A stretch of 64,000 bases of DNA, from assembly GCA_963780865.1 (NCBI GenBank), contig CAWADT010000009.1:42134-106133 (forward strand), given 5' to 3'. Positions 14,525 to 38,184 of this stretch are shown in pieces. Origin of the DNA: an uncultured Chloroflexia bacterium. GTDB taxonomy: Bacteria; Chloroflexota; Anaerolineae; Anaerolineales; RBG-16-64-43. Under the pieces are notes generated by a model that searched no databases, had not been told where the DNA came from, and worked only from the letters and a program-made list of their open reading frames with translations. A program made the translations under genes and the position numbers. Positions within the stretch are counted from its first letter, which is position 1, and each line of letters starts with the position of its first letter.

Positions 14525-14527
14525 GGT

Positions 14528-15736
14528 TTACTTCTCTCGTTTCCCGCCAAGCCCGAGCAGGCTGCAAACGGCTTTGGCGATCATGAATTCTTCGTCCGTG
14601 TGCATGACGCGCACGGCCACCCGGCTGGACGCCGCGGAGATCACGCCCTCACCGGCGGCGTTACGTTTTTGGTCGAGTTCGATTCCCAAAAATCCCAGCT
14701 CATCGCAAATCCGGGCGCGGACAATGGGAGCATTCTCTCCGATGCCGCCGGCGAATACCATTGTATCCAGCCCGCCCAGCGCCGCCGCGAACGCGCCGAT
14801 CCATTTTTTCACCTGGTAGCAAAACAGGGCCACCGCCTCGGCCGCCCGCACGTCTTCGGTTTCGCGCCCGAGCAAATCCTGCATGTCGGAGCTGGTTTCG
14901 GATATCCCGAGCAGCCCGGAGTGGAAATTGACCATCTCGTTGAATTGCCTGGCGCTCATTTTTTCCGTGCGCGACAGATACCAGACCAGGCCCGGATCGA
15001 GATCGCCGGAACGGGTGCTCATGGGCACCCCGGCGGCCGGCGTGAGACTCATGCTGGTGTCGACGGATTTTCCGTTCCGTACCGCCGCCAGGCTCGCGCC
15101 ATTGCCGAGATGGGCCAGGATCACCCGGCCGCCCGCCGCTTCGGCTCCGGCCAGGCGGGCCAATTCTTCCATGAGAAACGCATACGACAATCCGTGAAAT
15201 CCGTAGCGCCGCACGCCCTGCGCCTCGTAGCGGCGCGGGATGGGCAGCAACCGCGCCACGCGCGGCAGGTCGTGGTGAAAAGCAGTATCGAAACACGCCA
15301 CCTGGGGCAGATCGGGAAAGCGGCGGGAAAACGCTTCGGTCAGCAAAATCTCTTCGGGCAGATGTTCGGGATCGAACGGTTGAAGCTGGTGCAGCTCCTC
15401 GACCATTTCCTTTGTGATGCGCTGCGGCTCGCTGTACTTCGGTCCGCCGTGCACCACACGGTGGCCCACCGCCGTCAATGCTTCCCGCGCGCCGCGTTGC
15501 TCGATCCAATCCATCAGAACGCCCACCGCCGCCGTGTGGTCCGGCGCCTTTACGGGATGCGAAAAGTTGTCCGCCGGGTTCACCCCTTTCACCCGCATCA
15601 CGGCTTCCGGCAATCCAATCCGTTCCATCCCGCCCTCCAGAATCCGCCGGAGCGGGCCGCCGGCCCTGTACATCGCGAACTTAATGCTCGAAGAGCCGCC
15701 ATTGATCGTCAGGATGAGCGGGTCAGCCGGTTTCAT
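14528..15736 (-). CDS. ackA: Acetate/propionate kinase
   Basis: LTINGGSSSIKF, GHRVVHGG, CFDTAFH, RRYGFHGLS, HLGNGAS, FAGGIGEN, HTDEE; start placed at ATG 15736. Confidence 0.95.
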   Translation of the reverse strand: MKPADPLILTINGGSSSIKFAMYRAGGPLRRILEGGMERIGLPEAVMRVKGVNPADNFSHPVKAPDHTAAVGVLMDWIEQRGAREALTAVGHRVVHGGPKYSEPQRITKEMVEELHQLQPFDPEHLPEEILLTEAFSRRFPDLPQVACFDTAFHHDLPRVARLLPIPRRYEAQGVRRYGFHGLSYAFLMEELARLAGAEAAGGRVILAHLGNGASLAAVRNGKSVDTSMSLTPAAGVPMSTRSGDLDPGLVWYLSRTEKMSARQFNEMVNFHSGLLGISETSSDMQDLLGRETEDVRAAEAVALFCYQVKKWIGAFAAALGGLDTMVFAGGIGENAPIVRARICDELGFLGIELDQKRNAAGEGVISAASSRVAVRVMHTDEEFMIAKAVCSLLGLGGKREK

Positions 15737-21374: not shown

Positions 21375-21953
21375 TCAATGGCCGCGATTGGAATTTTCAT
21401 CGTCCGTTTCCCATTGCATCGGATTGTTCCGGATATATTTGCGGATCCGGGATAATTCATCCGGATTGCGGATGATGTGTTCATGAAAATTCCGTTGCCA
21501 TACCGGGGCGCCGGGGGTGCCCCGCAATTGGTTGATCCGCGTTGTTACGGCCGATTTATAACCGGCGATTAATGATGACAATGATTTATTGGCGGGGCCA
21601 CGTGGCGTTCCGGGGCGTAGGGGCGACCGGCCGGTCGCCCCTACCAACCCATTCCCGCAATCCACGATATTAACAATTGCGTGGAAATGATTGGGCATGA
21701 CAATGAATTCGTCCAACGCAATTTCGCGACGGATTTCTGCGGTTTTCAACCATTCCGCATTTGCGATTTTCCCCCACGCATTCAAATGCATTACCCCGTC
21801 GATAATTTTGCCGAATATCGATAATCGCCGGTATGAAACAATCGTCACGAAATATGAACCTGGTTGTGTGTAATCGAATCCCTTCAGGCGAATGGACCGG
21901 CGATGCCTGCCCTGAGGTTTCTCGAAGGGATGTTTGAATGGATCGTACGACAT
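21375..21953 (-). CDS. REP-associated tyrosine transposase (RAYT, HUH/Y1)
   Basis: RRSIRLKGFDY, YFVTI, VMPNHFH (HUH), WQRNFHEHIIR, YIRNNP (catalytic Tyr); perfect REP palindrome inside the gene. Confidence 0.92.
   Translation of the reverse strand: MSYDPFKHPFEKPQGRHRRSIRLKGFDYTQPGSYFVTIVSYRRLSIFGKIIDGVMHLNAWGKIANAEWLKTAEIRREIALDEFIVMPNHFHAIVNIVDCGNGLVGATGRSPLRPGTPRGPANKSLSSLIAGYKSAVTTRINQLRGTPGAPVWQRNFHEHIIRNPDELSRIRKYIRNNPMQWETDDENSNRGH
21617..21644. repeat. Perfect 28 bp REP palindrome GTAGGGGCGACCGGCCGGTCGCCCCTAC inside the RAYT gene
   Basis: Sequence equals its own reverse complement; translated as VGATGRSPL. Confidence 0.9.
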
Positions 21954-22017
21954 AATTATCCCCCTGGCGGATTTCATGGATCATTCGCAATTATAAATGG
22001 TTTTCACAATTTGTCAG

Positions 22018-22093: not shown

Positions 22094-25000
22094 ATGCCGC
22101 AAACCGTCATTGAAAACCCGATCCTGAATTCCCCTTTCGATGAACCCCGGCGCCACTTTAAATTCACCGAGGATGGAATAACAGACACGATTGTGCCGGC
22201 CCGGCGCATCAGCTCCTATTTCATTCCCATCCCCAGCCCGAAAAAGAAAAATCCAAAGCAGATTGCCTTCGAAACTGAGTGGACCGCCGACCGGCTCGAA
22301 GATAATAAATTTATCAATCAGATTCGCGAAAAGGTTGCGCTCTGGCGGAAGGGCGGCTGTATAGGTATCACCCGGACAACGGCCCGACTTCTGGAATACT
22401 GGAAGAATCCCGAGCGCGACCATCGCCTGTTTTTCTGCCAGATCGAAGCCCTCGAGACGGTCATCTATATCACCGAGGTGGCGGGAAAATACGGCGAACA
22501 ATGGATCGAGAATACAATTCGCGCCGCGAATGATAGCAGCAACCCGTTATTGAATCGGATTGCCCTCAAGATGGCAACGGGAAGCGGGAAGACGGTCGTC
22601 ATGGCGATGATGATCGCCTGGCATACGCTCAATAAACTGGCCAACCCGCAGGATTCCCGATTTTCCGATGCTTTTCTGATCGTCACGCCCGGAATAACCA
22701 TCCGCGACCGGCTGCGCGTCCTTCTGCCGAACGATCCGAACAATTATTATCGCGAACACGATATTGTTCCTCCCGATCTTATGCCCGAACTTGGAAAGGC
22801 CAAGATCGTGATTACGAACTTCCAGGGATTGATGCTTCGGGAACGAATTCAGGCCGGCAAGGTTACCCGGGGAATTCTGGGCCAGGGAAAAGACAATCCA
22901 TTTCAGGAGACTCCCGGCCAGATGGTCAGGCGGGTGTGCCGCGAGTTAGGTAACAAGAAAAACGTCATCGTGATCAATGACGAAGCGCACCATTGCTACC
23001 GAAGAAAACCGGATCAGGAAGTGGAAGAGGTGTTGATCGGCGACGAGCGCCGCGAAGCGCAAAAACGTGATGAGGAAGCCCGGGTTTGGATATCGGGGCT
23101 TGAGGCGGTGAAGAAGAAGATAGGCGTTCGTGCGGTCTATGACCTCTCCGCCACGCCATTTTTCCTGAGCGGGTCCGGCTATTCGGAAGGCACGCTCTTT
23201 CCATGGGTGGTATCGGATTTCTCGCTGATCGATGCGATCGAATCTGGCATCGTCAAAGTGCCGCGCGTGCCGGTCGCGGACGACCGCATGGCGGGAGATC
23301 AACCGACCTATCGGAATATCTGGCCGCTGATCCGCGAAGGCCTTCCGAAAAAAGGCCGCTCCACCGAAAAGCAGGAAGGCGAGCCGAAAATTCCGGTAGA
23401 ACTGGAAGGCGCGCTGCTGAGCTTGTACGGTAACTACGAGAAATATTACCGGTTGTGGGAGGGGAATGCGAAGGCCCGCGAGCGCGATCTGACCCCGCCG
23501 GTGTTCATCGTCGTTTGCAATAACACCAACGTTTCCAACCTGGTCTATAAATTCGTATCGGGCTGGGAGAAGCAAGTATCCAAAGATAAAACCGTACTGG
23601 TTCCCGGAAAGCTGGCGCTTTTCAATAACGTGGACGGAGAACGCTGGCGATCCCGCCCGAATACGATTCTCATCGACAGCGAGCAATTGGAATCCGGCGA
23701 AGGAATGAGTGCCGAGTTTAAAGCGATTGCCGCGCAGGAGATCGACGAATTCAAGAACGAATACCGGCTGCGCTTCCCGGGCCGGAGCGTCGAGGAATTG
23801 GATGACGAAGACCTGCTGCGGGAAGTGATGAATACGGTGGGGAAAGCGGGCAAACTGGGCGAGAATATTCGCTGCGTGGTTTCCGTCTCGATGCTGACCG
23901 AAGGATGGGACGCAACCACCGTCACCCACATTTTAGGCGTGCGTGCGTTTGGAACGCAGCTTTTGTGCGAACAGGTCGTCGGCCGCGGATTACGGCGCAT
24001 GTCTTATGGCATGCAGAAACATTCTGTGCAGGTTGACGGCGCCACGGTGGAATTCGAAGGCTTCTCGCCGGAATACGCCGAAGTGTACGGGGTGCCATTC
24101 TCATTCATTCCATGCGCCGGTGCGGCCGCCAACCCGCGCCCCGGCCCGATGCCAACCCGCGTACGCGCGCTGGAGGACCGGATCGCCTGCGAGATCACTT
24201 TCCCGCGCGTGATCGGTTATCGTTGCGAGATTCCCTCCGAGCGATTGGATGCTCGCTTTACGCCCAATTCGCTGATGGCGCTAACCACCGCAGATATCCC
24301 TACCCGGACCGAAGTGCAATCGATCATCGGCGAGCACGAGATGCATTCGCTCTACGGCTTGAAGGAAAAGCGCGAGCAGGAGATCGATTTCTATCTGGCG
24401 AAGTTGCTACTCGAGGAACATTTGCGGGACGACGAAGGCGCCGTCAAGCCGTGGCTCTATCCCCAACTCATCCCTATCGTCCGCCGCTGGCGGACCGAAT
24501 GCCTGACGCTAAGAGACGATACCTTCCCCCAAATGTTGCTGATGTCACAATGGGGGCACGCCGCCGCCGATAGAATTTACCGCGCAATCGCTACGGCGCC
24601 CGGCGCGGCGGGAATCCTCAAGCCGATCCTGCGTCCGTACGATACCATCGGCTCCACGCGCTACGTGGATTTCGACACCATCCGCCCGGTTTACCCGACC
24701 GACCCGGCCAAATGCCACATCTCGCACGTCGTGGCCGATACCGGCTCGTGGGAACAGAAGATGGCGCAATCGCTCGAGGAAATGGAAGAAGTTAGGCGAT
24801 ACGTCAAGAATCAGGGATTGGGTTTCAACGTGCCTTATACGCTCGATGGGGAAGAGCACAATTACCAACCCGATTTTATCGCCCAAATCGACGACGGGCA
24901 TGGACCGGACGATCTGCTCAACCTGATCGTCGAAGTGAGCGGTGAAGCGCGCAAGGACAAAGCAGCCAAAACCGCCACGATGCGGTCGCTGTGGATCCCG

Positions 25001-25117
25001 GCCGTCAATAACCACGGCGGTTTCGGGCGCTGGGCGTTCATCGAGATCACCGATCCGTGGGACGCGAAGAATACGATAAGGGCGATTCTAAGAATGGAAA
25101 AAGAGGGGGAGAAATGA
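22094..25117 (+). CDS. res: Type III restriction enzyme Res subunit (SF2 helicase + PD-(D/E)xK nuclease)
   Basis: KMATGSGKT, INDEAHH, SMLTEGWD, EQVVGRGLRR, C-terminal YQPDFI..LIVEVSG; paired with a mod gene. Confidence 0.92.
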   Translation: MPQTVIENPILNSPFDEPRRHFKFTEDGITDTIVPARRISSYFIPIPSPKKKNPKQIAFETEWTADRLEDNKFINQIREKVALWRKGGCIGITRTTARLLEYWKNPERDHRLFFCQIEALETVIYITEVAGKYGEQWIENTIRAANDSSNPLLNRIALKMATGSGKTVVMAMMIAWHTLNKLANPQDSRFSDAFLIVTPGITIRDRLRVLLPNDPNNYYREHDIVPPDLMPELGKAKIVITNFQGLMLRERIQAGKVTRGILGQGKDNPFQETPGQMVRRVCRELGNKKNVIVINDEAHHCYRRKPDQEVEEVLIGDERREAQKRDEEARVWISGLEAVKKKIGVRAVYDLSATPFFLSGSGYSEGTLFPWVVSDFSLIDAIESGIVKVPRVPVADDRMAGDQPTYRNIWPLIREGLPKKGRSTEKQEGEPKIPVELEGALLSLYGNYEKYYRLWEGNAKARERDLTPPVFIVVCNNTNVSNLVYKFVSGWEKQVSKDKTVLVPGKLALFNNVDGERWRSRPNTILIDSEQLESGEGMSAEFKAIAAQEIDEFKNEYRLRFPGRSVEELDDEDLLREVMNTVGKAGKLGENIRCVVSVSMLTEGWDATTVTHILGVRAFGTQLLCEQVVGRGLRRMSYGMQKHSVQVDGATVEFEGFSPEYAEVYGVPFSFIPCAGAAANPRPGPMPTRVRALEDRIACEITFPRVIGYRCEIPSERLDARFTPNSLMALTTADIPTRTEVQSIIGEHEMHSLYGLKEKREQEIDFYLAKLLLEEHLRDDEGAVKPWLYPQLIPIVRRWRTECLTLRDDTFPQMLLMSQWGHAAADRIYRAIATAPGAAGILKPILRPYDTIGSTRYVDFDTIRPVYPTDPAKCHISHVVADTGSWEQKMAQSLEEMEEVRRYVKNQGLGFNVPYTLDGEEHNYQPDFIAQIDDGHGPDDLLNLIVEVSGEARKDKAAKTATMRSLWIPAVNNHGGFGRWAFIEITDPWDAKNTIRAILRMEKEGEK

Positions 25118-25938
25118 AAATGGATGAGATCGGAAACTGGACGGAAGTGAAACTGGAAATTATCCGGGAATACGCTTCAGCATACTCAACGATATTATCC
25201 GCGCAAACGCACCCCAAGCTTCAACACTTCTATATCGACGCCTTTTCCGGGTCGGGGCTTCATATATCCAAGAAGAGCGGCGAGTATGTGGCAGGGAGCA
25301 CCTCAAATGCCTTGGACATCACGCCGCCTTTCCAAGGATTCTTTTTCATAGATATTGATAAAGATAAGGCGCAAATGCTACGGAAAACAACAGAAGGATT
25401 GAAGAATGTTCATATATATGAAGAAGACTGCAACATAACTCTGCTTGCAGAGGTTTTTCCCAAAGTCAAATATGAGGATTATCGCAGGGCTTTGTGCCTT
25501 TTAGATCCATACGGACTGCATTTGGATTGGGAAGTAATCGCAAAGGCGGGAAGTATGCGATCAGTTGAAATATTCCTTAATTTTCCTGTAATGGACATGA
25601 ATCGCAATGTACTTTGGAAAAACCCAGAGAATGTTCCCGCGGATCAGATTTCCCGCATGAATGCGTTCTGGGGGGATAAATCTTGGCGGGATGTGGCATA
25701 TGATACAAGGCAAAGTCTCTTCGGTTATCCGGTAAAAACCGATAACGATACGATTGCATTGGCGTTTCAAGAACGCCTGAAAAAAGTGGCCGGTTTCAAG
25801 CACGTTCCGGTTCCAATTCCGATGAGAAATTCGAAGGAAGCAACTGTTTATTATTTATTTTTCGCTTCACCGAAACCTGTGGCCGCTGATATTGTTTCGC
25901 AGATATTCGATAAATATCGAAAACCAGGAGACCAGTAA
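25114..25938 (+). CDS. tcmP: Three-Cys-motif partner protein (TcmP-type SAM-dependent methyltransferase-like)
   Basis: [11 protein letters not shown]-terminus, [11 protein letters not shown]...AL, FFIDID, LLDPYG, EIFLNFP; ATGA overlap with res; AT-richer than neighbours. Confidence 0.85.
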
Positions 25939-26663
25939 TGGCTAACCATTCCTCTATTGAATGGACCTCATCCACCTGGAATCCACTGACCGGCTGCACC
26001 AAGATCAGCGCCGGGTGCAAGCACTGCTACGCCGAACGGATGGCGAAGCGGCTCCAGGCTATGGGTCAGCCGCATTATTCCGGTGGATTCCGGTTGGCGC
26101 TGCACGAAGATTCGCTCGAATTGCCGCTTTCGTGGAAGAAGCCGCAGATGATCTTTGTCAATTCGATGAGCGATCTTTTCCATAAAAACGTTCCCGTCGA
26201 TTTCATCCAACGCGTTTTCGATGTGATGCGGCGGGCGGACTGGCACCAGTTCCAGGTGCTGACCAAGCGCGCCGACCGGCTGATGGAATTGGACCCGGTT
26301 CTGGATTGGCCGGCCAACGTCTGGATGGGCGTGAGCGTGGAAAACGCGGAGGTTGCGGGCCGAATCGACTTCCTGCGAAATACCCGTGCGCGGATAAAGT
26401 TCCTCTCACTCGAACCGCTGCTCGGGCCGATCCCGGGCATGAACCTGCGCGGGATCGACTGGGTGATCGTCGGCGGAGAATCCGGTCCCGGCGCGCGGCC
26501 GATGGACCGCGAATGGGTGGTCGACATTCGCAGGCAGTGCCGGACTGCCCGCGTCCCGTTCTTCTTCAAGCAGTGGGGCGGAGTGCGCAAGACCAAAGCC
26601 GGCCGTGAACTCGACGGCCGGACGTGGGATGAAATGCCAAGGACCGCAGCTGCCACAACCTAA
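25938..26663 (+). CDS. DUF5131 (phage Gp37/Gp68) family protein with Cx6Cx2C radical-SAM-like motif
   Basis: [68 protein letters not shown]; TAATG overlap with tcmP. Confidence 0.92.
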
Positions 26664-26665
26664 CA

Positions 26666-26752
26666 CCCCTCATCCCCTTCCCTTCTCCCAGCATAAGCTG
26701 GGAGAAGGGTGGCGAGTGCCGGTGATGTTTCCGGCACGAGACGGGATGAGGG
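26666..26752. repeat. CCCTCATCC..TCTCCCAGCATAAGCTGGGAGA..GGATGAGGG REP-like palindrome
   Basis: Same family at 39691-39755, 47453-47531 and 50823-50887. Confidence 0.8.
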
Positions 26753-26769
26753 AGAGAAGGAGAATTTAC

Positions 26770-29574
26770 GTGCCTCGACCAAAGAAATCTGAATCCAAAA
26801 CCGTCCCCGTCACCGCCATTCGCCACCCGGAAAAGCGGACAAACATCCCCACCGATGAGCTGCAGGATTTCGTCTCGGAAGACGAAAAGCATCCCAAGAC
26901 CGTGCTCTATCCGCGCGATACTTCGCTCGACCCGCAATTGGTATGGAAGGGCAAGGACGAACAGGATAGCCACGATCTGACCGTACCGGCCGTCCCGGTT
27001 TACATCCAGGAAAAGATCCATCCACAGGCGATAATCGAGAACGTGCGCACTGAAGCGAAAAAGGGTGCGCCGCAACAAGCTTCGCTTTTTTCCGATTTCA
27101 ACGGCATTTCCTTCGAGGAATTGATCGAGTTTTACCGCCACGAGCAAAACTGGTCAAACCGGATGATCCTGGGCGATTCGCTCCTGGTGATGACCTCGCT
27201 TGCGGAAAAGGAGCGGCTCAAGGGGCAGGTCCAGATGATCTACATCGACCCGCCCTACGGTATCAAGTTCGGCTCCAACTGGCAGGTAAGCACGCGAAAG
27301 CGCGACATAAAGGACGGCAAGGCTGAGGATACGACCCGACAGCCGGAGCAGATCAAAGCGTTCCGGGATACGTGGGAGTTGGGAATACATTCATATCTAG
27401 CATACATGCGAGATAGGTTGGTGGCGGCGAGGGAATTATTATCAGAAAGTGGAAGTATATTTATTCAAATAGGTGATGAAAATGTTCATTTAGTCAGAAA
27501 CATCTTAGATGAGGTATTTGGAAGTGAGAATTTTATTGCGTTGATAACTGTACAAAAAATGGCTGGACTCGCCTCCCAATTCTTGAAAGGAGCTTGTGAT
27601 TACATTATTTGGTATGTAAAGAACAAGGAGCAAACGAAATATCGGCAACTCTATTATGAAAAAATCCTCGGGATTGGTCATGGTTCAGGAGCAAGGTACG
27701 ACCAAATCATCTCACCGTTTGGTGAAAGACGCCCCATAATAAAAGATAATAATGAACTTAAAAATTTTATTGAAGATGGCTGGAGCATTTTCCGACATAC
27801 AACTTTAACTACATTTGGATCAGGTGGATCTTCATTCTTCCAGTTTAAATTTTATGGTGGTAATTACTTGCCAAGCAATACAAAGGGATGGCTTACTACT
27901 GAGAGTGGTATGAATAGACTTGGTATGGCAGGACGCATATCAAAGACGGGAGATTCAATCGGATATATTCGGTTTCTTGAAGATTTTCCAGCTTATGAGA
28001 TTAATAATGTATGGTCTGATATTTCTAGTCCACCCGATGTTATATATGTAGTCCAGACACATTCAAAATTAATTGAACGCTGTATGCTCATGACCACCGA
28101 CCCAGGTGACCTTGTACTCGATCCGACATGCGGTTCTGGCACGACGGCGTATGTCGCCGAACAATGGGGCCGGCGCTGGATCACGATCGATACCTCGCGC
28201 GTCGCGATCGCGCTGGCGCGCACGCGTCTGATGGCCGCGCGCTACCCCTATTATCTGTTAGCCGATACACCCGAAGGCGCAAAGATGGACGCTGAAGCTG
28301 CAGGCCATCTTCCCCCCAACGGCCAGTTGGCAACTACAAGCGGGCTAGCCAATATCAATCGCGGTTTCGTCTACAAGCGCGTCCTGCACGTCACGCTCAA
28401 ATCCATCGCCAACAACGAGGAGATCGATTCGATCCACGCCAAGTGGCAGGAACAACTCGAACCGATCCGTGTCAAACTAAACAAATTGCTCAAGGAAAAC
28501 TGGGAAGAATGGGAAATCCCGCGAGAGCTCCCTTCCCCTAGCCATGGGGGAAGGGATGGGGAAGGGGGTAAGCTTCTCGCCGAATGGTGGAAGTTGCGCC
28601 GCGAGCGACAGCAGGAGATCGACGCCAGCATCGCCAAACGCGCCGATACCGAACTGCTTTACGACCAGCCGTACGAGGATAACAAGCGTATCCGCGTGGC
28701 CGGGCCGTTCACCGTCGAAAGTCTTTCCCCGCACCGGGTGCTCGCCGCCGAGGAAGAACGCCCCGCCACCGAAGCCGCCGGGCAGGCGGAAACGGCGCAG
28801 GGGTTCGTGCAAATGATCATTGACAACTTGAAAGCCGCGGGCGTGCAGAACACCATCAAAAAGGAACGCCTCAAATTCGACCGGTTGGAGCCGTTCGCCG
28901 GCGAGTGGATCCACGCCACCGGCGAATACTCCGAAGGCGGCAAGACCAAGCGCGTTGCGGTTAGCATCGGGCCGGAACATGGTACGGTCGGGAAGGATCA
29001 AATAAAGGAAGCGGCCAAGGAAGCCGTCAAAGGCGTCGGATTCGATCTCCTAATCGTTTGCGGGTTTGCCTTCGATCCACTCGTCAATGATGAATCTAAA
29101 CGGTACGGAAACCTGAATGTGCTGATCACCCACATGAATCCTGATCTTTCGATGGGCGACGAGTTACTCAAGAAAACCGGCGCGGCCAACCTCTTCATGG
29201 TTTTTGGGGAGCCGGATTTGAAAATCGATAAACAAAAAGATGGTCGCATTATTGTAACTATTAAAGGGGTCGACGTTTATGATCCGACGACCGGCGAAAT
29301 TCGCTCGCATTCCACCGACGATATCGCCTGCTGGTTCATCGACACCGACTATAACGGGGAATCCTTCTTCGTCCGGCACGCCTACTTCACCGGAGCCGAT
29401 CAGCCTTACGAAAAGCTCAAACGCGCGCTGCGCGCCGAGGTGGACGAGGCCGCCTGGTCGGCCTTGTATTCCACCAAGAGCCTGCCCTTCGACCCGCCCG
29501 CCAAGGGCAAGATCGCGGTGAAGGTGATCAATCACTACGGGGATGAGGTGATGAAGGTGTATGAGGTGAAATAA
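26770..29574 (+). CDS. mod: Type III R-M methyltransferase Mod subunit (beta-class amino-MTase)
   Basis: IYIDPPYG precedes DPTCGSGTT; AT-rich TRD about 27385-28080; GTG start at 26770 chosen because upstream frame is REP-derived. Confidence 0.92.
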   Translation: MPRPKKSESKTVPVTAIRHPEKRTNIPTDELQDFVSEDEKHPKTVLYPRDTSLDPQLVWKGKDEQDSHDLTVPAVPVYIQEKIHPQAIIENVRTEAKKGAPQQASLFSDFNGISFEELIEFYRHEQNWSNRMILGDSLLVMTSLAEKERLKGQVQMIYIDPPYGIKFGSNWQVSTRKRDIKDGKAEDTTRQPEQIKAFRDTWELGIHSYLAYMRDRLVAARELLSESGSIFIQIGDENVHLVRNILDEVFGSENFIALITVQKMAGLASQFLKGACDYIIWYVKNKEQTKYRQLYYEKILGIGHGSGARYDQIISPFGERRPIIKDNNELKNFIEDGWSIFRHTTLTTFGSGGSSFFQFKFYGGNYLPSNTKGWLTTESGMNRLGMAGRISKTGDSIGYIRFLEDFPAYEINNVWSDISSPPDVIYVVQTHSKLIERCMLMTTDPGDLVLDPTCGSGTTAYVAEQWGRRWITIDTSRVAIALARTRLMAARYPYYLLADTPEGAKMDAEAAGHLPPNGQLATTSGLANINRGFVYKRVLHVTLKSIANNEEIDSIHAKWQEQLEPIRVKLNKLLKENWEEWEIPRELPSPSHGGRDGEGGKLLAEWWKLRRERQQEIDASIAKRADTELLYDQPYEDNKRIRVAGPFTVESLSPHRVLAAEEERPATEAAGQAETAQGFVQMIIDNLKAAGVQNTIKKERLKFDRLEPFAGEWIHATGEYSEGGKTKRVAVSIGPEHGTVGKDQIKEAAKEAVKGVGFDLLIVCGFAFDPLVNDESKRYGNLNVLITHMNPDLSMGDELLKKTGAANLFMVFGEPDLKIDKQKDGRIIVTIKGVDVYDPTTGEIRSHSTDDIACWFIDTDYNGESFFVRHAYFTGADQPYEKLKRALRAEVDEAAWSALYSTKSLPFDPPAKGKIAVKVINHYGDEVMKVYEVK

Positions 29575-29746
29575 GTAAAATCCACGGTTATTTTCGAGAA
29601 AAGGCCATTTATTTATGTGTGTTAAGAAGAAGTGAATTTTATTTTGGCATGCGTACTATCCGGCATAAGATAGAAGGGCATAGAGCAATTATTGCTTTGG
29701 GAATACACGCGCGTCGGCATTATTTTATTCAAGGAGTAAAAATATT

Positions 29747-30049
29747 ATGGCTAGCAAAAAGAAAATAGAAAAGCGCAAAGCTGTGCAAGGCGAGCGAATG
29801 ATTGAAATGAGAATTTATTTTTGGACCAATGATCTAGTAAAAGGCGCCGGGGTAATCCGACCAAAACATGCTTGGTCGAGCGGAATGATCCGATTGGAAA
29901 AGAATGAATCTCATGGCATCGTTCCGGGGAGGACGCTTCCCTTTCATTCACTGATGGATTTGCCGTCCGTGATTGAAAAAGTACTTATCGCCCAAGGGAT
30001 TACCCTCCACGCAACTCGAAAAATGAGAAAATACTTAGATCCACAATAG
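29747..30049 (+). CDS. Hypothetical protein (100 aa)
   Basis: AAGGAG RBS; co-oriented with mod; no recognised motif. Confidence 0.7.
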   Translation: MASKKKIEKRKAVQGERMIEMRIYFWTNDLVKGAGVIRPKHAWSSGMIRLEKNESHGIVPGRTLPFHSLMDLPSVIEKVLIAQGITLHATRKMRKYLDPQ

Positions 30050-30277
30050 TAGGAATATTACTCAATATCTATTTACATACGGGATAGATCGATGGCCAAA
30101 GAAATTGAATAGGAGAGAATTATGACAATTGTAGATAATCGATACCGAGGGAAGAAAGAATATTTTCTTGTTTACGCAGAAATGATCAATGCTGCCAAAT
30201 ATCGGGGAACTGTCACTTATCAGGAAGTTGCACAAATTATGGGGCTTTGGGCTTCCCCCGATATTTCGGACACCTGG

Positions 30278-31183
30278 TTAAGCCTGAACGGATAGCTGTC
30301 GCTCGAATTCGTTGGGCGATTTAAAACCCAACGATGAGTGCTTGCGCCACGTATTATAGAACCCTTCGATGAATTCAAATATTGCCTGATGAGCCTCCTC
30401 TCTTATCCGGTAACCCTCCGGTGGAACCAGCTCCATCTTCAACGTGCTCATAAAGCTTTCCGCTGGCGCATTATCGTAGCAATTACCCGATCGGCTCATG
30501 CTGGGCAAAATCCCATGATCCGATAAATCACCCCGGTACTCACCGCTGGCATACGGGCTGCCCCGGTCCGTGTGATGGATCAGAACTTCTCGAACCACAC
30601 AACGTTGCCGGAGAGCTTCCTGCAACGCCCGACGCGCCAGGTCACGATCGTTATGCTCTCCGTCAGCCCAGCCGACAATCTTGCGAGAGCACAGGTCCAT
30701 GATGATTGCCAAGTACAGCCAGCCTTCCCGGGTGGGAATATACGTGACGTCTCCCACCCAGGCCCGGTTAATTTCCGTGAAGTGGAATTGCTGATCCAGC
30801 AGGTTCGGTGCCACCGGCAGCGACGGATCCGATTGGGTGGTTCGCACCCGACGATAGTGCCGCCGCGCCCGGATTCCATGGGTTTTCATAAGCTTTTCCA
30901 CCCGTTTACGGCCGATCCGCCAGCCTTGATCGTGCAGATCGCGATGCATACGCGGACTGCCATAACGGTGCCGAGTGGCCACTTCCAACTTCCGTAATGC
31001 CAGGAGCAGCCGTTGGTTTTCTGCTTCCCGAGGGCTGGGAGTATGTTTCCGCCAGGCATAATATCCGCTGGCCGAAACCTGCAACGCCCGACACATTCTG
31101 ACCACGGGAAACATGCTTCGGTGATCTCCGATGAATTGAAATTTCACCGCTGGTCTTGCGAAAAAACACGGACCGCTTTTTTT
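30278..31183 (-). CDS. IS3 OrfB DDE transposase/integrase core (expressed by -1 frameshift)
   Basis: RYGSPRM HTH, WVGDVTY, HHTDRGSPY, DNAPAESF..LKME. Confidence 0.92.
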   Translation of the reverse strand, partial: KKSGPCFFARPAVKFQFIGDHRSMFPVVRMCRALQVSASGYYAWRKHTPSPREAENQRLLLALRKLEVATRHRYGSPRMHRDLHDQGWRIGRKRVEKLMKTHGIRARRHYRRVRTTQSDPSLPVAPNLLDQQFHFTEINRAWVGDVTYIPTREGWLYLAIIMDLCSRKIVGWADGEHNDRDLARRALQEALRQRCVVREVLIHHTDRGSPYASGEYRGDLSDHGILPSMSRSGNCYDNAPAESFMSTLKMELVPPEGYRIREEAHQAIFEFIEGFYNTWRKHSSLGFKSPNEFERQLSVQA

Positions 31184-31440
31184 AGGATGTCCCGCTCCAA
31201 CCGGAGGTTGGCATTTTCCTTCTCTAGCTGCTCGATCCGAGTTTCTGCTTCTTTCAAATTGCCATGTCCGGGAAATGCCTGTTCCCCATTCTGGCGGAGC
31301 TGCCGTTGCCAACGGAAGATGGCGCCTGCCGGTAGTCCCATTTCCCGTTCGATTTGCGAGACCGACTTTTCGCTCGTCTCGGCCAGCCTGAGCGTTTCCA
31401 GCTTGAATTCCTTTGTGTAGCTCCTGCGTGGATTGACCAT
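31144..31440 (-). CDS. IS3 OrfA (HTH)
   Basis: RRSYTKEFK, HTH, leucine zipper LEKENANLRLERDILKKA. Confidence 0.92.
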   Translation of the reverse strand: MVNPRRSYTKEFKLETLRLAETSEKSVSQIEREMGLPAGAIFRWQRQLRQNGEQAFPGHGNLKEAETRIEQLEKENANLRLERDILKKAVRVFSQDQR

Positions 31441-31951
31441 GATTGACTCCCTGGAATAAGTGTACTATGGCTTATCCAGGTGTCCGTTTTATCGGGGGAG
31501 GTTCACTTCCGTTGCGGGGCAATAAAATGGGGAAGGAAGTGGGTTGGATTCTCGGTGAAATTTCCGATGACGAGGTTGCTAATGGAAGACCAATGCTAAG
31601 CGCTATTGCAGTGAATGTGAAAGGTCAGCCAGGTGAGGGCTTTTTCGCGCTGGCCAGACAACATGGAAAATTAATAGATGATAGCGAGCAGACATTCTGG
31701 GAAAGAGAGCGCCAACTTGTTTACGAGACATGGAAAATCCCATTGAAATAAGGATTCGAAAAAAGTTTGTTCGACAAAGAAAAAAGGACTGAATTAACAA
31801 TAAAACCAAGAATATTTTCAGGGTATGTTCAGGGTGGGAGAAAACGAACAAATAATAGGCAAGATGGATGAGCTTGATCAAGTCTCTCTAGGAAAATTTT
31901 GTTGATATTAGGAAAAAGGATAGCGGTGGGATAAGAAATTAGGAGCCAGCC

Positions 31952-34900
31952 ATGGGAAACATTAGCCAAGGGTCGCGACAATTACCTCTACGGCACATCT
32001 CCATCCGTGTTCCATGGAACGATACCAATTGGAGCGGTATTGTATGCCAAAAACCGGCCGATAATGCATCCTGCCTTATCCTTCGGCGAATTCGAGCGAC
32101 TCGCAAGGATGCAGAGGAAACATCAGTGGCCGGAAAAACCTGGAATGACTTGTCACAGGAAAATCTGCCTCCTTGTGTCAGTGAGCATGGCCAGTTCATG
32201 TCTCCATGTGAATTGGTACGGAATATTCAGCATCCTTATGCCGAACACAGTGAGGCACATAAGCATATCGTTCCCACACCTTACCGGTACGCGCCATACT
32301 CCGCAGCAGCAGTTCCTTTCAACTGGATGCTGCGTGAATCCGCTGAAGATATCGTTAAAAAGTTTGAATTGGGGTACCAACCCGCCTTGGAAACACAAGC
32401 CGATGAAATCATGGGGTATGAGACTTCCTGGGTCCAGGAAAAAGAAAATCAGCTGGTTATGTTGGACACCTTCTTCAGCGCCATCCAACCTCAAAAATCG
32501 CTGGTCTTCTTCTATGCCAAACGGACACCTCTAGTTGATGACGTTCGACGTGTTCTGATAGGGGTTGGGTGGGTGACTCATGTCGGCGATCCAGTCGAAT
32601 ACAAATACAAGGAAGCCGGCACGCTAAAAAGTGTTTTGTGGGAAAGAAATATCCAACATTCTATCCGCGATGGTTTTAAGGATGGTTTTCTACTGCCCTA
32701 CCACGAGGTGATCAAATACCTCGAGCAACACCCTGACGATGACCCTTCGAAATATGTGGCATTTATTCCGGATGATCAATTCTGGGCTTTCAGTTATGGG
32801 AGTCAACATATCACCAATGATGGAGCGATTGGTTCACTGCTTGCTTGTGGGAAGGCCATCCAGAATATCCAGAAAATCATCCCCGGAAAATGGGAACAAG
32901 TCCTTTCTTGGTTAGATGCTAGATTAAATGAATTGTGGGATATGCGCGGACCATGCCCGGGCCTTGGTTCAGCTCTAACGGCCTTTGGCCTGGAAAATGG
33001 ATCGCTTGTTGCATATGAATTGGAACGCATTCTGACCGAAAAACCGGAAACGGTTGGCACTGATCCCTGGCCATTGGTGGACCGCTTGTTCAAACAACCG
33101 GAAACTTTTCCGCCAGAGATTGGGAAAAAAGTTGGCAAGACTCTGCAAAAACTTTGGATGACTTTACCTGATGAACGCCGGGCATTGCTCAAACTGCTCA
33201 GCCGTTTTGAACTGACTGCGCCGCAAGCCACTCGTTATTATGTCCATGAGGAAAAACAACGAGCGGATTTCTGTATTAAAGCGGATGATTTGGAACTTAT
33301 CTCCAATCCTTACCGGCTTTATGAATTGGATCGTGTAACGCCCGATCCGGTCAACCTGGCTACAGTCGACCGAGGCATTTTTCCAGATGAAAGCATCCGT
33401 CAAAAATATCCGGTGCCTGCACAATCGCAGATCCCGGACGCGTTGGATCCCCGCCGAGTATGTGCATTTGTGATTCGCCAGTTGGATCTTGCAACGCAAA
33501 ATGGGCATACCTTGCAACCCCGTGACAAGATCATTCAAGAAATTCGCGAATTGGATGTTCAGCCTGATTGTCCCGTAACCGGCGACTTAATGTCCGTGGT
33601 GGAGCAGGCCTTTGAACCCCGTGTCCATGTTATAAAACTTCACGACGATAAACACGCATACCAGCTTGATGAACTCTATAAAGCTGGAGAAAAAATACGA
33701 TCGAATATTACGCGCCGCCCAAGCGGCACGCGCCATAGCGCGAAAATCGATTGGGAGAAGCTTCTGGCCGAGGCGATCAAATCTCCCGTCGATACCGCAG
33801 ACCAGGATGAAGCAAATGCGCGAAAGGAAAAAACGGCCGCACTTGAAGAATTATTTGCATCCCGCTTCTCCGTTCTGATTGGACCTGCCGGTACAGGTAA
33901 AACCACTTTGCTTAAAGTGCTAAGTCATGAACCTTCTGTAGCCGCAGGAGGGGTTTTACTACTTGCTCCCACCGGAAAAGCACGCGTTAGGATGGAAACG
34001 CAGGCAGAATTGAAAGGAGCTCAAACCATTGCGCAATTATTACTGCCGCTTGACCGATATGAACCGCAAACAGGCATATATCGTCCATCCAACCGAAATC
34101 CGGGGGTAGACAGTTATAAAACCGTCATTATCGATGAAGCGTCCATGCTAACTGAAGATCAGCTTGCGGCGGTAATGGATGGGATCAAGGGCGCAGAAAG
34201 GATTATTCTTGTAGGAGATCCTCGGCAACTTCCTCCGATTGGCGCCGGTCGTCCTTTCCTCGACATCGTACAGAAGCTGACTCCGGAGAATACTGATTTC
34301 ATATTTCCTCGAATTGGTCCAGGTTATGCCGAACTGACCATCCGACGGCGTCAAATTGGTGAAAAGAGGGATGATTTACTCCTAGCGGAATGGTTTAGCG
34401 GTCGCCCTCTGGATCCGGGAGCAGATGAAATCTGGCAAAAGATCCAAGAAGGAACACATTCGAATCATTTGGACTTTGTTGAATGGAACAACCCCGAGGA
34501 CCTTCAAAATATATTGTTGGACACTCTTGTGAAAGAGTTGAACTTAGATGGAAGAGACGATTCAAACAAATTTGAAGTATCTTTGGGCGGCTCAGAATTC
34601 AAAGAGTACGTATTTTTCTGGGAAACAAAAGCTGGAAAAACGGGTGCTTGCTCAAAAGTGGAGGACTGGGAAATCTTATCCCCGGTTCGCAATAATCCAT
34701 TCGGTGTGGAAGCCCTCAATCGCCTCATCCAGACTACATTCCGCACTAAAACAAAAGAATGGGCTTCGAAGAAATACGGGCGAAAAATACCGAAACCAAT
34801 GGGCCGTGAAGAAATATTGTATGGAGACAAGGTAATTCAAACCCAGAATCAGAGGCGTTTCAAGGTATATCCAAAGGAAAATGCGCTTAACTATGTCGCC

Positions 34901-35704
34901 AACGGTGAATTAGGGATTGCTGTTGGGCAGTATAAAACAAAGAATATGAATTTCACACCGTATGCCCTGGAAATCGAGTTTTCGTCGCAGCCCGGTTTTA
35001 AGTACTCCTATTCCGGCGGAGATTTTGTAGAAGAATCGTATCCGACACTGGAGTTGGCGTACGCATTGACAGTCCACAAAACACAAGGTTCGGAATTTGG
35101 CCTTACATTTGTGGTCATCCCTAACCCCTGTCGTCTGCTTTCTCGCGAACTCCTATACACGGCCTTAACACGGCAAAGAAATAGGGTCGTTGTATTCCAC
35201 CAAGGTCCTTTGCAGGATTTGAAAAATTACTCCAACGATTTCTACTCCGAGTTTGCAGCTCGATTGACAAATCTTCTGGATGCTCCAAAACCGGTAGAGG
35301 TAATTGAGAAATTCCTTGAAGACAAACTGATTCATAGAACCGGGAAAGGTATTTGCATGCGGTCCAAGTCGGAGGTAATCATTGCTTCTGAATTTGATCA
35401 TGCGGGGATAGAATACACCTATGAGAGCAAGTTGTTGGGGCAAGATGGAACCGCGCGTTACCCAGACTTTGTAATCAATGATGTTGAGAGCGGTCGCCAG
35501 TATTATTGGGAACATCTTGGCATGCTTTATAAGCCGGACTATAAGCAGCGCTGGGAAAAGAAGCTCGCCTGGTATAGGAAACAAGGCATACTTCCGATAG
35601 AAGAAGGCGGCGGATCACATGGAATTTTGATTACTACGGCCGACCATCCAAACGGCGCAATTGATGTAACAGAAATTCAAGGGATAATTAAGAAAATTTC
35701 CTAG
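31952..35704 (+). CDS. RecD2-like SF1B helicase with ~600-aa unassigned N-terminus and C-terminal PD-(D/E)xK (Vsr/DUF559-like) nuclease, 1250 aa
   Basis: GPAGTGKTT, APTGKA, IIDEASM, GDPRQLPPIG, YALTVHKTQGSEF, LYTALTR; C-terminal RSKSEVIIA..YPDFVI..YWEHLGM. Confidence 0.88.
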   Translation: MGNISQGSRQLPLRHISIRVPWNDTNWSGIVCQKPADNASCLILRRIRATRKDAEETSVAGKTWNDLSQENLPPCVSEHGQFMSPCELVRNIQHPYAEHSEAHKHIVPTPYRYAPYSAAAVPFNWMLRESAEDIVKKFELGYQPALETQADEIMGYETSWVQEKENQLVMLDTFFSAIQPQKSLVFFYAKRTPLVDDVRRVLIGVGWVTHVGDPVEYKYKEAGTLKSVLWERNIQHSIRDGFKDGFLLPYHEVIKYLEQHPDDDPSKYVAFIPDDQFWAFSYGSQHITNDGAIGSLLACGKAIQNIQKIIPGKWEQVLSWLDARLNELWDMRGPCPGLGSALTAFGLENGSLVAYELERILTEKPETVGTDPWPLVDRLFKQPETFPPEIGKKVGKTLQKLWMTLPDERRALLKLLSRFELTAPQATRYYVHEEKQRADFCIKADDLELISNPYRLYELDRVTPDPVNLATVDRGIFPDESIRQKYPVPAQSQIPDALDPRRVCAFVIRQLDLATQNGHTLQPRDKIIQEIRELDVQPDCPVTGDLMSVVEQAFEPRVHVIKLHDDKHAYQLDELYKAGEKIRSNITRRPSGTRHSAKIDWEKLLAEAIKSPVDTADQDEANARKEKTAALEELFASRFSVLIGPAGTGKTTLLKVLSHEPSVAAGGVLLLAPTGKARVRMETQAELKGAQTIAQLLLPLDRYEPQTGIYRPSNRNPGVDSYKTVIIDEASMLTEDQLAAVMDGIKGAERIILVGDPRQLPPIGAGRPFLDIVQKLTPENTDFIFPRIGPGYAELTIRRRQIGEKRDDLLLAEWFSGRPLDPGADEIWQKIQEGTHSNHLDFVEWNNPEDLQNILLDTLVKELNLDGRDDSNKFEVSLGGSEFKEYVFFWETKAGKTGACSKVEDWEILSPVRNNPFGVEALNRLIQTTFRTKTKEWASKKYGRKIPKPMGREEILYGDKVIQTQNQRRFKVYPKENALNYVANGELGIAVGQYKTKNMNFTPYALEIEFSSQPGFKYSYSGGDFVEESYPTLELAYALTVHKTQGSEFGLTFVVIPNPCRLLSRELLYTALTRQRNRVVVFHQGPLQDLKNYSNDFYSEFAARLTNLLDAPKPVEVIEKFLEDKLIHRTGKGICMRSKSEVIIASEFDHAGIEYTYESKLLGQDGTARYPDFVINDVESGRQYYWEHLGMLYKPDYKQRWEKKLAWYRKQGILPIEEGGGSHGILITTADHPNGAIDVTEIQGIIKKIS

Positions 35705-35745
35705 AAAATAACCCATCAAAAAGGCAACCCCTAAGGAGGTGATTT

Positions 35746-36210
35746 ATGATTTTTTGGAGAATGCAACTTCACCCGGGAGATTCGGGCCAAGCTGCGCAGC
35801 ACTCAATTCGATGCATATCGTCGGGGTTTATCGGACTAGATTTCGAGACCGACGTGGGGGATCTACGGAAGCTCACCAAAGAAAACCTACCTAAGGGGCA
35901 CCGGACATATTTGGCTTTTGCAAAAGAAATGAAACCACTCGATATTGTCCTAATTTATGTTCATAATTACCCATTTGCCTTGTTGAAAGTGAAAAGCAAA
36001 TATTATTACACAACTTCTTCTATTCCAGAGATTGGAATATGGCCGAGGCATTTCCGGCGAGTGGAATTACTACAGTATTATTCCGACTATATTAAGAACC
36101 CTCGAAAATGGAAGAAATCCACCATGACTGAAACACTAACACCTCTACGCGATAAAAATAAATCAACCTACATTCTTATTTCGGGCTGGCTAAAGAATCT
36201 CAGAAAGTGA
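35746..36210 (+). CDS. Stand-alone PUA/EVE-like domain protein resembling McrB/Mrr N-terminal DNA-reader domains
   Basis: AAGGAGGTG RBS; pattern FW....FIGL...GDL..F..EMK..DIVLI..AL.KV...Y.Y..RHFRRVE recalled from such domains, not verified by HMM. Confidence 0.55.
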   Translation: MIFWRMQLHPGDSGQAAQHSIRCISSGFIGLDFETDVGDLRKLTKENLPKGHRTYLAFAKEMKPLDIVLIYVHNYPFALLKVKSKYYYTTSSIPEIGIWPRHFRRVELLQYYSDYIKNPRKWKKSTMTETLTPLRDKNKSTYILISGWLKNLRK

Positions 36211-36265
36211 AAGGAATCAGTCGCGAAAACAAATATCATAGATTGAATCAATATTGGAGGAGCAA

Positions 36266-37534
36266 ATGGATCTTAACGAAGCTCGTAAAGTTATTTGGAT
36301 GAAGCCGAATCGCCGCCCGATGGGAGAATTATTCGACGAAGGATTTTTGGATCGGGGAAGATTGGAGTGGGCCGCAAAGGAAGCGTATACACCCAAGGTG
36401 CGAGAAGCCGCTGATGTATTTCTCGCCCTACTTGGTCAACCTCCTTCAGCAACTACAAACACTAAACCGGCTCCCCAACCGTCTGTAAAGCCAAATTTGC
36501 CGGATATCAATATAAAAATGTCGATCGATCAAGCAAGATCGATCTTTTGGCCAATTCCCCCCTTCAAAGGGCAACCAATGGGTTCATTGGTCGAAACGAG
36601 ACAACTAACACTCAAAGATCTGGGTTGGGCAATTGATAATGCCTGGGACCAGAAGGTTAGGGAAGCGGCGGTTGTATTATCGGCTATCCGACTTAAACAG
36701 ACTGTCAATGAACCCGAGCCCCCAAAGGGATATTTGCGAATTGTGTCAAAAGGAATAAGTTTTTCCGAGAGTAATCAGTTCCGGCTTGTCTACCTTGAGG
36801 GGTTGATTATCGGAATCATGCTTGGGGCGGCTTTATTTGCCATAATATATCCAATACTATTTCCAAATAATTCTCAATCAACGACAACCCTTGGAGAGAT
36901 TGTTTCCACGCCGACTGGTGTCGTTGTACTGATTTTGGCCCTTTGTTTAGTCATTGGAATACCGTTGACGATGTGGTTGGTGGCTGAAGGATCAACAAAA
37001 ATAATCAATAAGCAGATTGAAAATTATCGAAAGGGACAAGAAGGTGAAGATAGAGTAAGCGATACAATAAATGCCGCCTTGAATGGAGAATGGACGCTAT
37101 TTAGAAATGTACTACTCCCAGGAAGGAAAGGCGGCGATTTGGATTCTATCCTGGTAGGGCCGGGGGGAGTTTGGGTGTTGGAAGTAAAGACATTTACCGG
37201 AGAATTCCGAAACATTGGTGAACAGTGGGAGTGCCTCGCAGGTAAACAATGGCAGATCGTCAAATCAAATCCAAGTCGGCAAGGTAAACGAAATGCTGCT
37301 CTCCTGGCCTCTTTCCTACAAGCAGATCATATAAAGATTTGGGTTAAACCAGCAATCGTCTGGGCGAATCCGGAGAGTTCCCTTAAGGTTGAAAACCCAT
37401 CGGTGCCTATATGGAAATTGGATCGCTTGCCGGACGAATTGGGAAACATTTCCAATGGCCGGAATATTTCTGAGGATGATCAACAAAAGATTAACAAGAA
37501 GCTGACGAGGTTAATTGAAAGGCAGAAACAATAG
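36266..37534 (+). CDS. NERD nuclease with duplicated N-terminal domain and two TM helices
   Basis: GGAGG RBS then ATG 36266; GQEGEDRV..RNVLLP..DLDSILVGPGGVWVLEVKTFTG; two hydrophobic segments before it. Confidence 0.85.
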   Translation: MDLNEARKVIWMKPNRRPMGELFDEGFLDRGRLEWAAKEAYTPKVREAADVFLALLGQPPSATTNTKPAPQPSVKPNLPDINIKMSIDQARSIFWPIPPFKGQPMGSLVETRQLTLKDLGWAIDNAWDQKVREAAVVLSAIRLKQTVNEPEPPKGYLRIVSKGISFSESNQFRLVYLEGLIIGIMLGAALFAIIYPILFPNNSQSTTTLGEIVSTPTGVVVLILALCLVIGIPLTMWLVAEGSTKIINKQIENYRKGQEGEDRVSDTINAALNGEWTLFRNVLLPGRKGGDLDSILVGPGGVWVLEVKTFTGEFRNIGEQWECLAGKQWQIVKSNPSRQGKRNAALLASFLQADHIKIWVKPAIVWANPESSLKVENPSVPIWKLDRLPDELGNISNGRNISEDDQQKINKKLTRLIERQKQ

Positions 37535-37749: not shown

Positions 37750-38184
37750 ATGCCCGACCCTTACGAAACCCTGCAAGTCTCCCGCCACGCCGAAATCGAG
37801 GTCATCGCGGCCGCCTACCGGACGCTGGCGCGCAAATACCACCCCGATAAAAATGACGCGCATGCCGGCACCAATCGGATGCAGGAGATCAACGCCGCCT
37901 ACGAAATCCTCAAAGATTCGGTAAAACGGAAGGAATACGACCGCGGCCACCCGTTTGCCTTGGGCAATGTCGTGTGGCGAAGCGAGGAAGCGATCGACTG
38001 GTCGGGCGAGTTTGACTCGGAAGATTTGGATGACTGGGCCAGCTCCTACGCGCGGCGCCGCGATCATCCGGTGCCCATCCATCGGCCGGGTTTCTTAAAA
38101 AGGAATTGGGCCGGCATCCTGTATTTGCTTTTCGTCCTTTTCATGGGCTATGAATTATTGGGAGCGGTTATCAGAAAATATTAA
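37750..38184 (+). CDS. J-domain (DnaJ-type) protein with C-terminal TM anchor
   Basis: DPYETLQV..AYRTLARKYHPDKN..INAAYEILKD..RKEYD; hydrophobic C-terminus. Confidence 0.9.
   Translation: MPDPYETLQVSRHAEIEVIAAAYRTLARKYHPDKNDAHAGTNRMQEINAAYEILKDSVKRKEYDRGHPFALGNVVWRSEEAIDWSGEFDSEDLDDWASSYARRRDHPVPIHRPGFLKRNWAGILYLLFVLFMGYELLGAVIRKY

Follow-up and report, generated by a model that had tools for sequence, protein, structure and literature searches.

Three co-oriented genes that follow one another on the + strand of a 64,000-nucleotide (nt) stretch of DNA from an uncultured Chloroflexia bacterium (the whole stretch is called here the window) are probably separate units that lie side by side in a variable slot of a defence island. 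The slot is bounded on the left by a conserved type III-like restriction-modification (R-M) operon and on the right by the last of the three genes, which encodes a membrane protein with a NERD domain. The first gene (gene 1; 31952-35704) encodes a predicted helicase-nuclease of 1250 amino acids (aa), and the second (gene 2; 35746-36210) a 154-aa protein of the DUF8426 family. The NERD gene (gene 3; 36254/36266-37534) yields 426 aa from a TTG start or 422 aa from an ATG start; its homologues on record begin at ATG, matching the gap of 55 nt that follows gene 2, while genes 1 and 2 are 41 nt apart. Full-length homologues are numerous for all three proteins, and the genes can therefore be considered real; those homologues with source names come mostly from Anaerolineae/Chloroflexota metagenome bins. 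An earlier note on this DNA had described three closely spaced genes, each with a ribosome-binding site (RBS), in an AT-richer block next to a type III R-M system. This description agrees with the open reading frames (ORFs), with the Shine-Dalgarno sites (AGGAG for gene 1, AAGGAGGTGA for gene 2, and GGAGGA for gene 3), with GC contents of 0.47, 0.42, and 0.45 for genes 1 to 3 versus 0.60 on either side of the 21-40 kb block, and with the neighboring methyltransferase gene, which matches the MTase_III model with E = 7e-303. In contrast, the proposal that the three genes make up one new anti-phage system is contradicted both by their distribution and by the fact that gene 1 was already catalogued.

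Gene 1 is a full-length member of PDC-S68, a single-gene candidate that is part of the PADLOC collection. Its protein matches profile PDLC05065 with E = 0 and 1610 bits, with residues 12-1249 aligned to positions 4-1218 of the 1221 in the profile. Thus, the PADLOC search, which had been suggested as a check for novelty, speaks against it. The PDC candidates, 145 in total and stated by their authors to be untested against phage, were derived from genes embedded in known systems, and PDC-S68 was recognized from a gene lying within R-M, BREX, or DISARM systems (Payne et al. 2024, bioRxiv 10.1101/2024.01.29.577857). A literature search returned no paper naming PDC-S68 and no validated RecD-like single-gene system that matches gene 1. 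The family is very widespread: full-length homologues, about 1250 aa long, number in the thousands and come from many phyla. Like other members, gene 1 has a RecD-type helicase between an N-terminal orphan domain and a tail that resembles a nuclease, and PDC-S68 genes are found as lone cassettes in defence islands, often beside SNF2/ResIII helicases and methyltransferases. Nothing sets gene 1 apart from this candidate, while the adjacent DUF8426 and NERD genes lie outside it.

The co-occurrence of the three genes was tested from the side of each of them, by running hidden Markov models (HMMs) built for genes 1, 2, and 3 on the six-frame ORFs of fetched loci. For PDC-S68, one genome per species was scanned and the closest relatives were added. 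The resulting set comprises 58 full-length loci, each with flanks of at most 8 kb, and includes the window and a syntenic contig (L031) that is discussed below. None of the 56 other loci has a DUF8426 or gene-3-family ORF within that distance. This is also true for the closest relatives of gene 1, which are 84, 76, and 70% identical to it and whose surroundings hold an SNF2-PLD gene with an Eco57I-type methylase gene, a type I R-M system, and Roc-COR genes. Downstream sequence of 600 nt or more was available for 54 loci. In 21 of these, no ORF in the same orientation begins within the first 200 nt, and the rest are followed by unrelated ORFs, none of them matching a PUA/EVE family. Likewise, no hidden reader was detected behind other PDC-S68 genes, either with the gene 2 HMM with its filters turned off or in a Pfam scan of ten small downstream ORFs. 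As no small gene recurs next to PDC-S68 in these 56 loci, gene 1 is, by its sequence and surroundings, a self-contained single-gene cassette. Its commonest neighbor is a co-oriented SNF2/ResIII helicase gene (about 1000-1200 aa; 14 of 58 loci), often directly adjacent, as for instance in loci L117, L119, L066, L047, L082, and L095. Methyltransferases come next (five loci). In one genome (G034, locus L231), PDC-S68 is followed immediately by a Res-Mod pair, whose two members share 47% and 51% identity with those of the window.

A similar picture emerges from the other two genes. Neither PDC-S68 nor a gene 3 homologue was found in the 82 other distinct DUF8426 loci, which comprise 80 metagenome contigs plus L033 and L035. 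In a set of 401 genomes of the phylum, a single one carries the DUF8426 gene. This gene has no recurrent neighbor, and the largest cluster of loci that share one contains 6 of 83. Some of its neighbors are housekeeping genes (enolase, EPSP synthase, dxr/cdsA), and others are defence genes (Zorya, Druantia, DISARM, REase-ARP, Fic, QueC). For the NERD gene, 8 further distinct contexts were examined, and its homologues there are never accompanied by gene 1 or gene 2. The trio, as well as the pair formed by genes 1 and 2, was found only in the window and in L031. Consequently, these loci do not support a conserved three-gene system that recurs in independent genomes.

The comparison of close relatives explains this pattern in terms of a slot. 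In a genome of the same genus (G001; locus L224, with L122 as the matching metagenome contig), the flanking genes are clearly the same as in the window, with identities of 94.5% for Res, 87% for TcmP, 91% for DUF5131, 80% for Mod, and 69% for NERD. The interval between Mod and NERD, however, differs. It contains a GmrSD_N (DUF262) gene and a 155-aa DUF4365-like gene in G001 (4668-7000 in L122/L224), a 152-aa DUF4365-like gene and RmuC in L124 (5265-7000), and, in the window (29575-36265), a 100-aa gene, a gene of a 134-aa type split by an IS3 element, PDC-S68, and DUF8426. Since the cargo between Mod and NERD differs among relatives, this interval is a variable defence slot, and a clear example of one where the content changes between close relatives. 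The genes of about 150 aa in the slots of L122 and L124 were considered as possible DUF8426 members and rejected, with an hhalign probability of less than 1%; the two share 62% identity and bear a weak resemblance to DUF4365/PD-(D/E)xK proteins. The nucleotide similarity of gene 1 to its 84% identical relative is confined to 31918-35695, that is, the gene and its RBS, beginning 34 nt before the start codon and ceasing 9 nt before the end of the stop codon.

The contig L031 is the only other place where the order of the three genes is seen. It is syntenic with the window, with identities of 91% for DUF5131, 75% for Mod, 93% for a 112-aa gene that corresponds to the 100-aa gene of the window, 85-88% for an intact 134-aa gene, 77% for DUF8426, and 51% for NERD. 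Between the 134-aa gene and DUF8426, L031 holds a PDC-S68 of another subfamily (PDLC05066, E = 0), which is 27% identical to gene 1, lacks nucleotide similarity to it, and ends 10 nt upstream of DUF8426. In other words, one PDC-S68 has taken the place of a distant paralogue within a conserved frame, and the swap between PDLC05066 and PDLC05065 runs precisely from gene border to gene border (4460-7990 in L031, 31952-35704 in the window). Moreover, a 273-aa gene is placed between DUF8426 and NERD in L031. These details bear on the idea, taken from the earlier note, that the trio is one system in which a reader recruits the helicase-nuclease while a membrane NERD nuclease acts at the site of DNA entry. 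The operon-like layout, the recurrence of the order 1-2-3 in L031, and the presence of defence-type domains in all three proteins speak for it. Nevertheless, the 273-aa gene splits genes 2 and 3 in the sole recurrence, where NERD has diverged to 51% identity against 77% for DUF8426, NERD homologues occur without genes 1 and 2 in the 8 other contexts, and genes 1 and 2 each occur without a NERD gene in all other loci. We thus regard a three-gene system as very improbable.

A narrower alternative limits the cooperation to genes 1 and 2, which would make up a module specific to this lineage, perhaps together with the two small genes upstream, and leaves gene 3 as independent. According to this alternative, a free DUF8426 reader would mark modified phage DNA and would recruit or license PDC-S68 in trans, as a split type IV-like enzyme with an exchangeable motor-nuclease cassette. 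We hold both the module and this mode of action to be unlikely, although they deserve to be weighed. The frame made by the 112-aa gene, the 134-aa gene, the slot, and DUF8426 is common to the window and L031 at 77-93% identity, and this slot holds a PDC-S68 gene in both cases, followed by DUF8426 after 41 or 10 nt. A split enzyme would explain why the same position is taken, in two related genomes, by subfamilies that share only 27% identity. In addition, the DUF8426 domain forms the N-terminal part of McrB-type AAA_5 proteins and of one HNH nuclease, and the fold of gene 2 resembles that of EVE/YTH readers. By contrast, the pairing was absent from all the other PDC-S68 and DUF8426 loci surveyed, including those of the three closest relatives of gene 1, no other small reader-like gene was found behind PDC-S68, and profile comparison found no relation between the N-terminal domain of gene 1 and DUF8426. 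As the window and L031 share ancestry, they amount to one evolutionary instance of the pairing, compared with about 140 loci that lack it.

There are four observations that weigh against the reading of separate units and in favor of some link between the genes. First, genes 1 to 3 are likely co-transcribed, judging from their common orientation, tight spacing, strong RBSs, and the absence of terminator-like sites on the + strand between them in a consensus scan. Second, the same reader gene is immediately preceded by a different PDC-S68 cassette in each of the two loci, which hints at a connection between genes 1 and 2, although it could equally be explained by allelic replacement inside a hotspot. 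Third, many of the metagenome contigs are short, and at least 3 kb of upstream sequence is present in only 34 of the 83 DUF8426 loci. Fourth, a stand-alone EVE gene beside an SNF2-nuclease gene has been predicted to be part of an archaeal system, composed of a COG1743 methyltransferase, DUF499, an SWI2/SNF2-nuclease fusion, and the stand-alone EVE protein (Bell, Wolf and Koonin 2020, PMC7641849). The window is similar to this system in having a stand-alone PUA-like reader beside a helicase-nuclease fusion with a methyltransferase nearby. Nevertheless, its helicase is of the RecD-like superfamily 1B (SF1B) and not SNF2, DUF499 is absent, DUF8426 is not a canonical EVE domain, and the pairing is limited to one lineage. 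If genes 1 and 2 did cooperate, they would represent a type IV restriction enzyme of a new design.

The helicase-nuclease assignment that had been made for gene 1 stands firmly in its first half. The core of the protein (residues ~620-1085) has the features of an SF1B RecD-like helicase, including Walker A (GPAGTGKT, 644-651), Walker B (DEAS, 728-731), and RecD-type 1A and 2A domains. Pfam places AAA_30 (E = 2.5e-28), AAA_19 (E = 3.7e-21), and UvrD_C_2 (E = 4.5e-12) within residues ~626-1081, with no Pfam match outside this core, and G644-T652 and D728/E729 are invariant in the alignment of the family. The score against the RecD2 model TIGR01448 (206 bits) is below the cut-off of 500, and gene 1 is thus not a RecD2 equivalog. 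As for the second half of the assignment, the C-terminal region (residues ~1105-1250) is probably a PD-(D/E)xK-like nuclease, a proposal that comes from its motif and from weak PADLOC matches to HEAT_CxxC_PDDEXK (E = 2.8e-3) and PDC-S69 (E = 0.029). Its invariant residues are E1141, E1158, P1171-D-F, E1187-H, and K1204, and S1138 is also part of the conserved motif set; the third motif reads E-H-L rather than E-x-K. This region has no Pfam match and no match to PDB sequences in a profile search.

The N-terminal domain of gene 1 (residues 1 to about 500) has no known fold. A model of the first 500 residues is confident (predicted local distance difference test, pLDDT, 91; predicted template modelling score, pTM, 0.91). 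Nevertheless, a Foldseek search with this model against the PDB gave a best E value of 0.9, with no match to a solved structure. The three top hits were EVE proteins with a probability of 0.09, and a similarity of this domain to EVE was not counted as evidence. Both a profile search against PDB sequences and an hhalign comparison with DUF8426 were negative. Near its N-terminus, the alignment reveals a conserved cluster of one histidine and three cysteines (H15, C32, C41, and C75). Thus, a very widespread defence candidate carries a domain of some 500 residues that folds confidently and resembles no solved structure.

Gabija (GajA/GajB), Nhi, and Hhe resemble gene 1 in their general principle, which is to couple an SF1-type motor to a nuclease. 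The matches to these systems are weak and of the P-loop level, with E = 1.7e-5 for Nhi and E = 6e-3 for GajB in PADLOC, and E = 4e-3 for Hhe in NCBIfam, far below the cut-off of that model. Their architectures differ from that of gene 1, which does not belong to any of them.

Under the preferred reading of separate units, gene 1 would work by itself. Its N-terminal domain, with the conserved Cys/His cluster, would sense or license, the RecD-type SF1B motor would translocate 5′-3′ on invading DNA at the expense of ATP, and the C-terminal PD-(D/E)xK-like domain would cut the DNA. Gene 2 would be a solo PUA-like reader that binds a modified base and that, in most genomes, has no fixed partner. 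Gene 3 would be a protein with a NERD nuclease fold and a two-helix membrane anchor that serves as an accessory beside many different R-M or defence genes. All these activities, and any anti-phage effect, are predictions that build on directly observed family membership, folds, domain fusions, distributions, and synteny.

The reader-like nature of gene 2 had been proposed from its sequence, and it agrees with the model of its structure. In the local copy of Pfam-A, gene 2 has no match, including to EVE (PF01878); its 174 homologues in a clustered protein collection carry PF28530, that is, DUF8426. The family has tightly conserved motifs (WRMQLHP, GLDF, HHFPFA, YNY, and WFRHFR). The AlphaFold2 model of gene 2 (pLDDT 90, pTM 0.87) has its best Foldseek matches in the PDB among EVE proteins (2p5d, 2hd9/1wmm, and 1zce) and the EVE-HNH enzyme VcaM4I (6yex), and further matches are YTH readers of N6-methyladenosine and THYN1 bound to DNA with 5-methylcytosine. 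These matches have a probability of 1.0, E values of 2.5e-5 to 1e-3, and a template modelling score of about 0.5. On the basis of this model, gene 2 has a PUA-like fold of the EVE/YTH type. Residues Y86, Y88, W99, H102, F103, R104, and W122 are invariant in the alignment, and these aromatic and basic residues are candidates for the pocket that would hold a modified base.

A profile search found 202 members of PF28530 among 1.84 billion representative proteins, mostly solo proteins of about 150 aa. Among ten longer proteins that were scanned, DUF8426 is fused to AAA_5 in six cases, to HNH in one, and to a KAP NTPase in one, and it is N-terminal to these domains, the AAA_5 being of the McrB type. 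Because of its modeled fold and of these fusion partners, the most likely role of gene 2 is to bind nucleic acid at a modified base. Accordingly, DUF8426, on which a literature search found no paper, can now be described as a predicted PUA-like reader domain, mostly solo, that would also provide type IV enzymes of the McrB and HNH types with their specificity. Gene 2 is alike in fold to the type IV enzymes with PUA-like readers, such as EVE-McrB and the EVE/PUA-HNH enzymes VcaM4I and TagI, and DUF8426 is fused elsewhere to the same kinds of partner. It differs from them in standing alone, with no fused nuclease and no AAA_5 or McrC partner in the window, and in a sequence that does not match Pfam EVE. 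In effect, neither AAA_5 nor McrC was found in the 13 ORFs scanned between 21375 and 41464, and gene 2 is thus not part of an McrBC system.

Some minor observations concern the surroundings and origin of DUF8426. QueC, of the 7-deazaguanine/queuosine pathway, is the commonest family among 139 neighboring ORFs, with only three members, and may hint at the modification that DUF8426 recognizes. EVE-domain genes appear twice among these ORFs. A phage origin of gene 2 was considered and rejected, as there was one hit in 2.9 million viral contigs, and this was on the same contig as a metagenome hit.

Gene 3 had been described as a membrane NERD protein, and so it appears. Pfam NERD (PF08378) matches residues 260-370 with E = 4.4e-19 and 69.5 bits, against a cut-off of 22.1. 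Hydropathy points to two hydrophobic helices at residues ~178-200 and 217-240, and two membrane helices imply that both ends of the protein are on the same side, presumably the cytoplasmic one. Toward the N-terminus, a motif of about 55 aa is duplicated (internal repeat score of 88, versus 24 +/- 4 for shuffled sequences). The alignment shows no variation at E261, D291, D293, and K308 and very little at E306; these acidic and lysine residues are the ones expected of a NERD domain of the PD-(D/E)xK type. Full-length copies are present in 8 of 201 genomes of the order. There is, in addition, one decayed copy with seven in-frame stops in a genome of the same family (G020:C3:2793216-2794411; L217, L223). 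In three loci, a gene of about 106-181 aa directly follows NERD at its 3′ side (L225 4251-4793; L226 8989-9528, - strand; L126 8280-8600). The proteins are 40-43% identical among these loci, have no Pfam match, and lack a counterpart in the window.

It may also be asked whether gene 3 is a distal accessory of the R-M operon, with genes 1 and 2 as embedded cargo. This does not conflict with reading genes 1 and 2 as separate units, and yet we consider it quite unlikely. The order Res-(TcmP)-DUF5131-Mod, variable cargo, and NERD is seen in four distinct loci (window, L031, L122/L224, and L124), other NERD homologues immediately follow R-M genes of type I or type III, and PDC-S68 itself was discovered embedded in R-M, BREX, or DISARM systems. 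Furthermore, the NERD domain of gene 3 weakly resembles the N-terminal NERD domains of PglW and MADS6 (MAD6). On the other hand, the four loci are related by descent, and the type of R-M beside NERD varies (type III-like, type I, or none). For instance, L126 has NERD and a J-domain gene behind a type I R-M system and DarTG, and the neighbors across L126, L225, L226, L227, and L229 include type I R-M with DarTG, HsdM with DUF5655, a type III Res, Roc-COR, and a BrxA-like gene. We know of no R-M family that needs a NERD membrane protein. With respect to other NERD-containing systems, gene 3 differs from PglW and MADS6 in lacking a kinase domain, from HEC-02 (an ABC ATPase plus NERD) in lacking an ABC ATPase partner, and from all of them in its two membrane helices and its duplicated N-terminal motif; no PADLOC model covers it.

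The operon to the left of the slot (22094-29574, + strand) consists of four genes. The candidate Res is a ResIII helicase gene (22094-25117), which has a ResIII domain and matches REase_III weakly (E = 6e-11). It is followed by a TcmP-like gene (25057-25938; PADLOC PDC-M41A), a DUF5131 gene (25938-26663; PDC-M41B), and the type III methyltransferase gene, or Mod (26605-29574; PDLC03632). With a Mod methyltransferase and a Res helicase-nuclease candidate, this neighbor qualifies as a type III R-M system. The TcmP-like gene, of a methyltransferase fold, and DUF5131 are embedded between Res and Mod, a position that M30A/B take instead in L124. The four-gene order is kept in relatives at 80-95% identity.

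Behind Mod, the cargo begins with the 100-aa gene (29747-30049, + strand). The gene of the 134-aa type (30092-31751, + strand) is split into two pieces (30092-30247 and 31506-31748), both of which match the intact L031 protein in tblastn with the identity given above. The insertion is an element of the IS3 family (~30248-31508), with a transposase gene on the - strand (30278-31312) that has rve and HTH_21 domains. Neither the 100-aa protein nor the 134-aa type has a Pfam match. No run of RNA sequencing that covers the locus was found, only three metagenome DNA runs with at most 8% of sampled words, and there are no tRNA genes within the window that could serve as borders of the island.

Downstream of the NERD gene, a gene on the + strand (37750-38184) encodes a J-domain-only protein of 144 aa (Pfam DnaJ, E = 1e-20). 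Its homologues are 61% (L124), 73% (L126), and 52% (L226) identical to it, and they are located 1-8.5 kb from NERD homologues in these three loci. At the left edge of the AT-richer block there is an IS200-like Y1 transposase gene of the RAYT type (21375-21977, - strand), which has homologues, 60-72% identical, near the corresponding loci in L224 and L126. Finally, the segment 37562-37840 of the window has short nucleotide similarities (77-83%) to L031 at 14507-14690 and 9538-9631. These are not collinear, which suggests that the right edge of the slot has been rearranged or carries a small repeated element.

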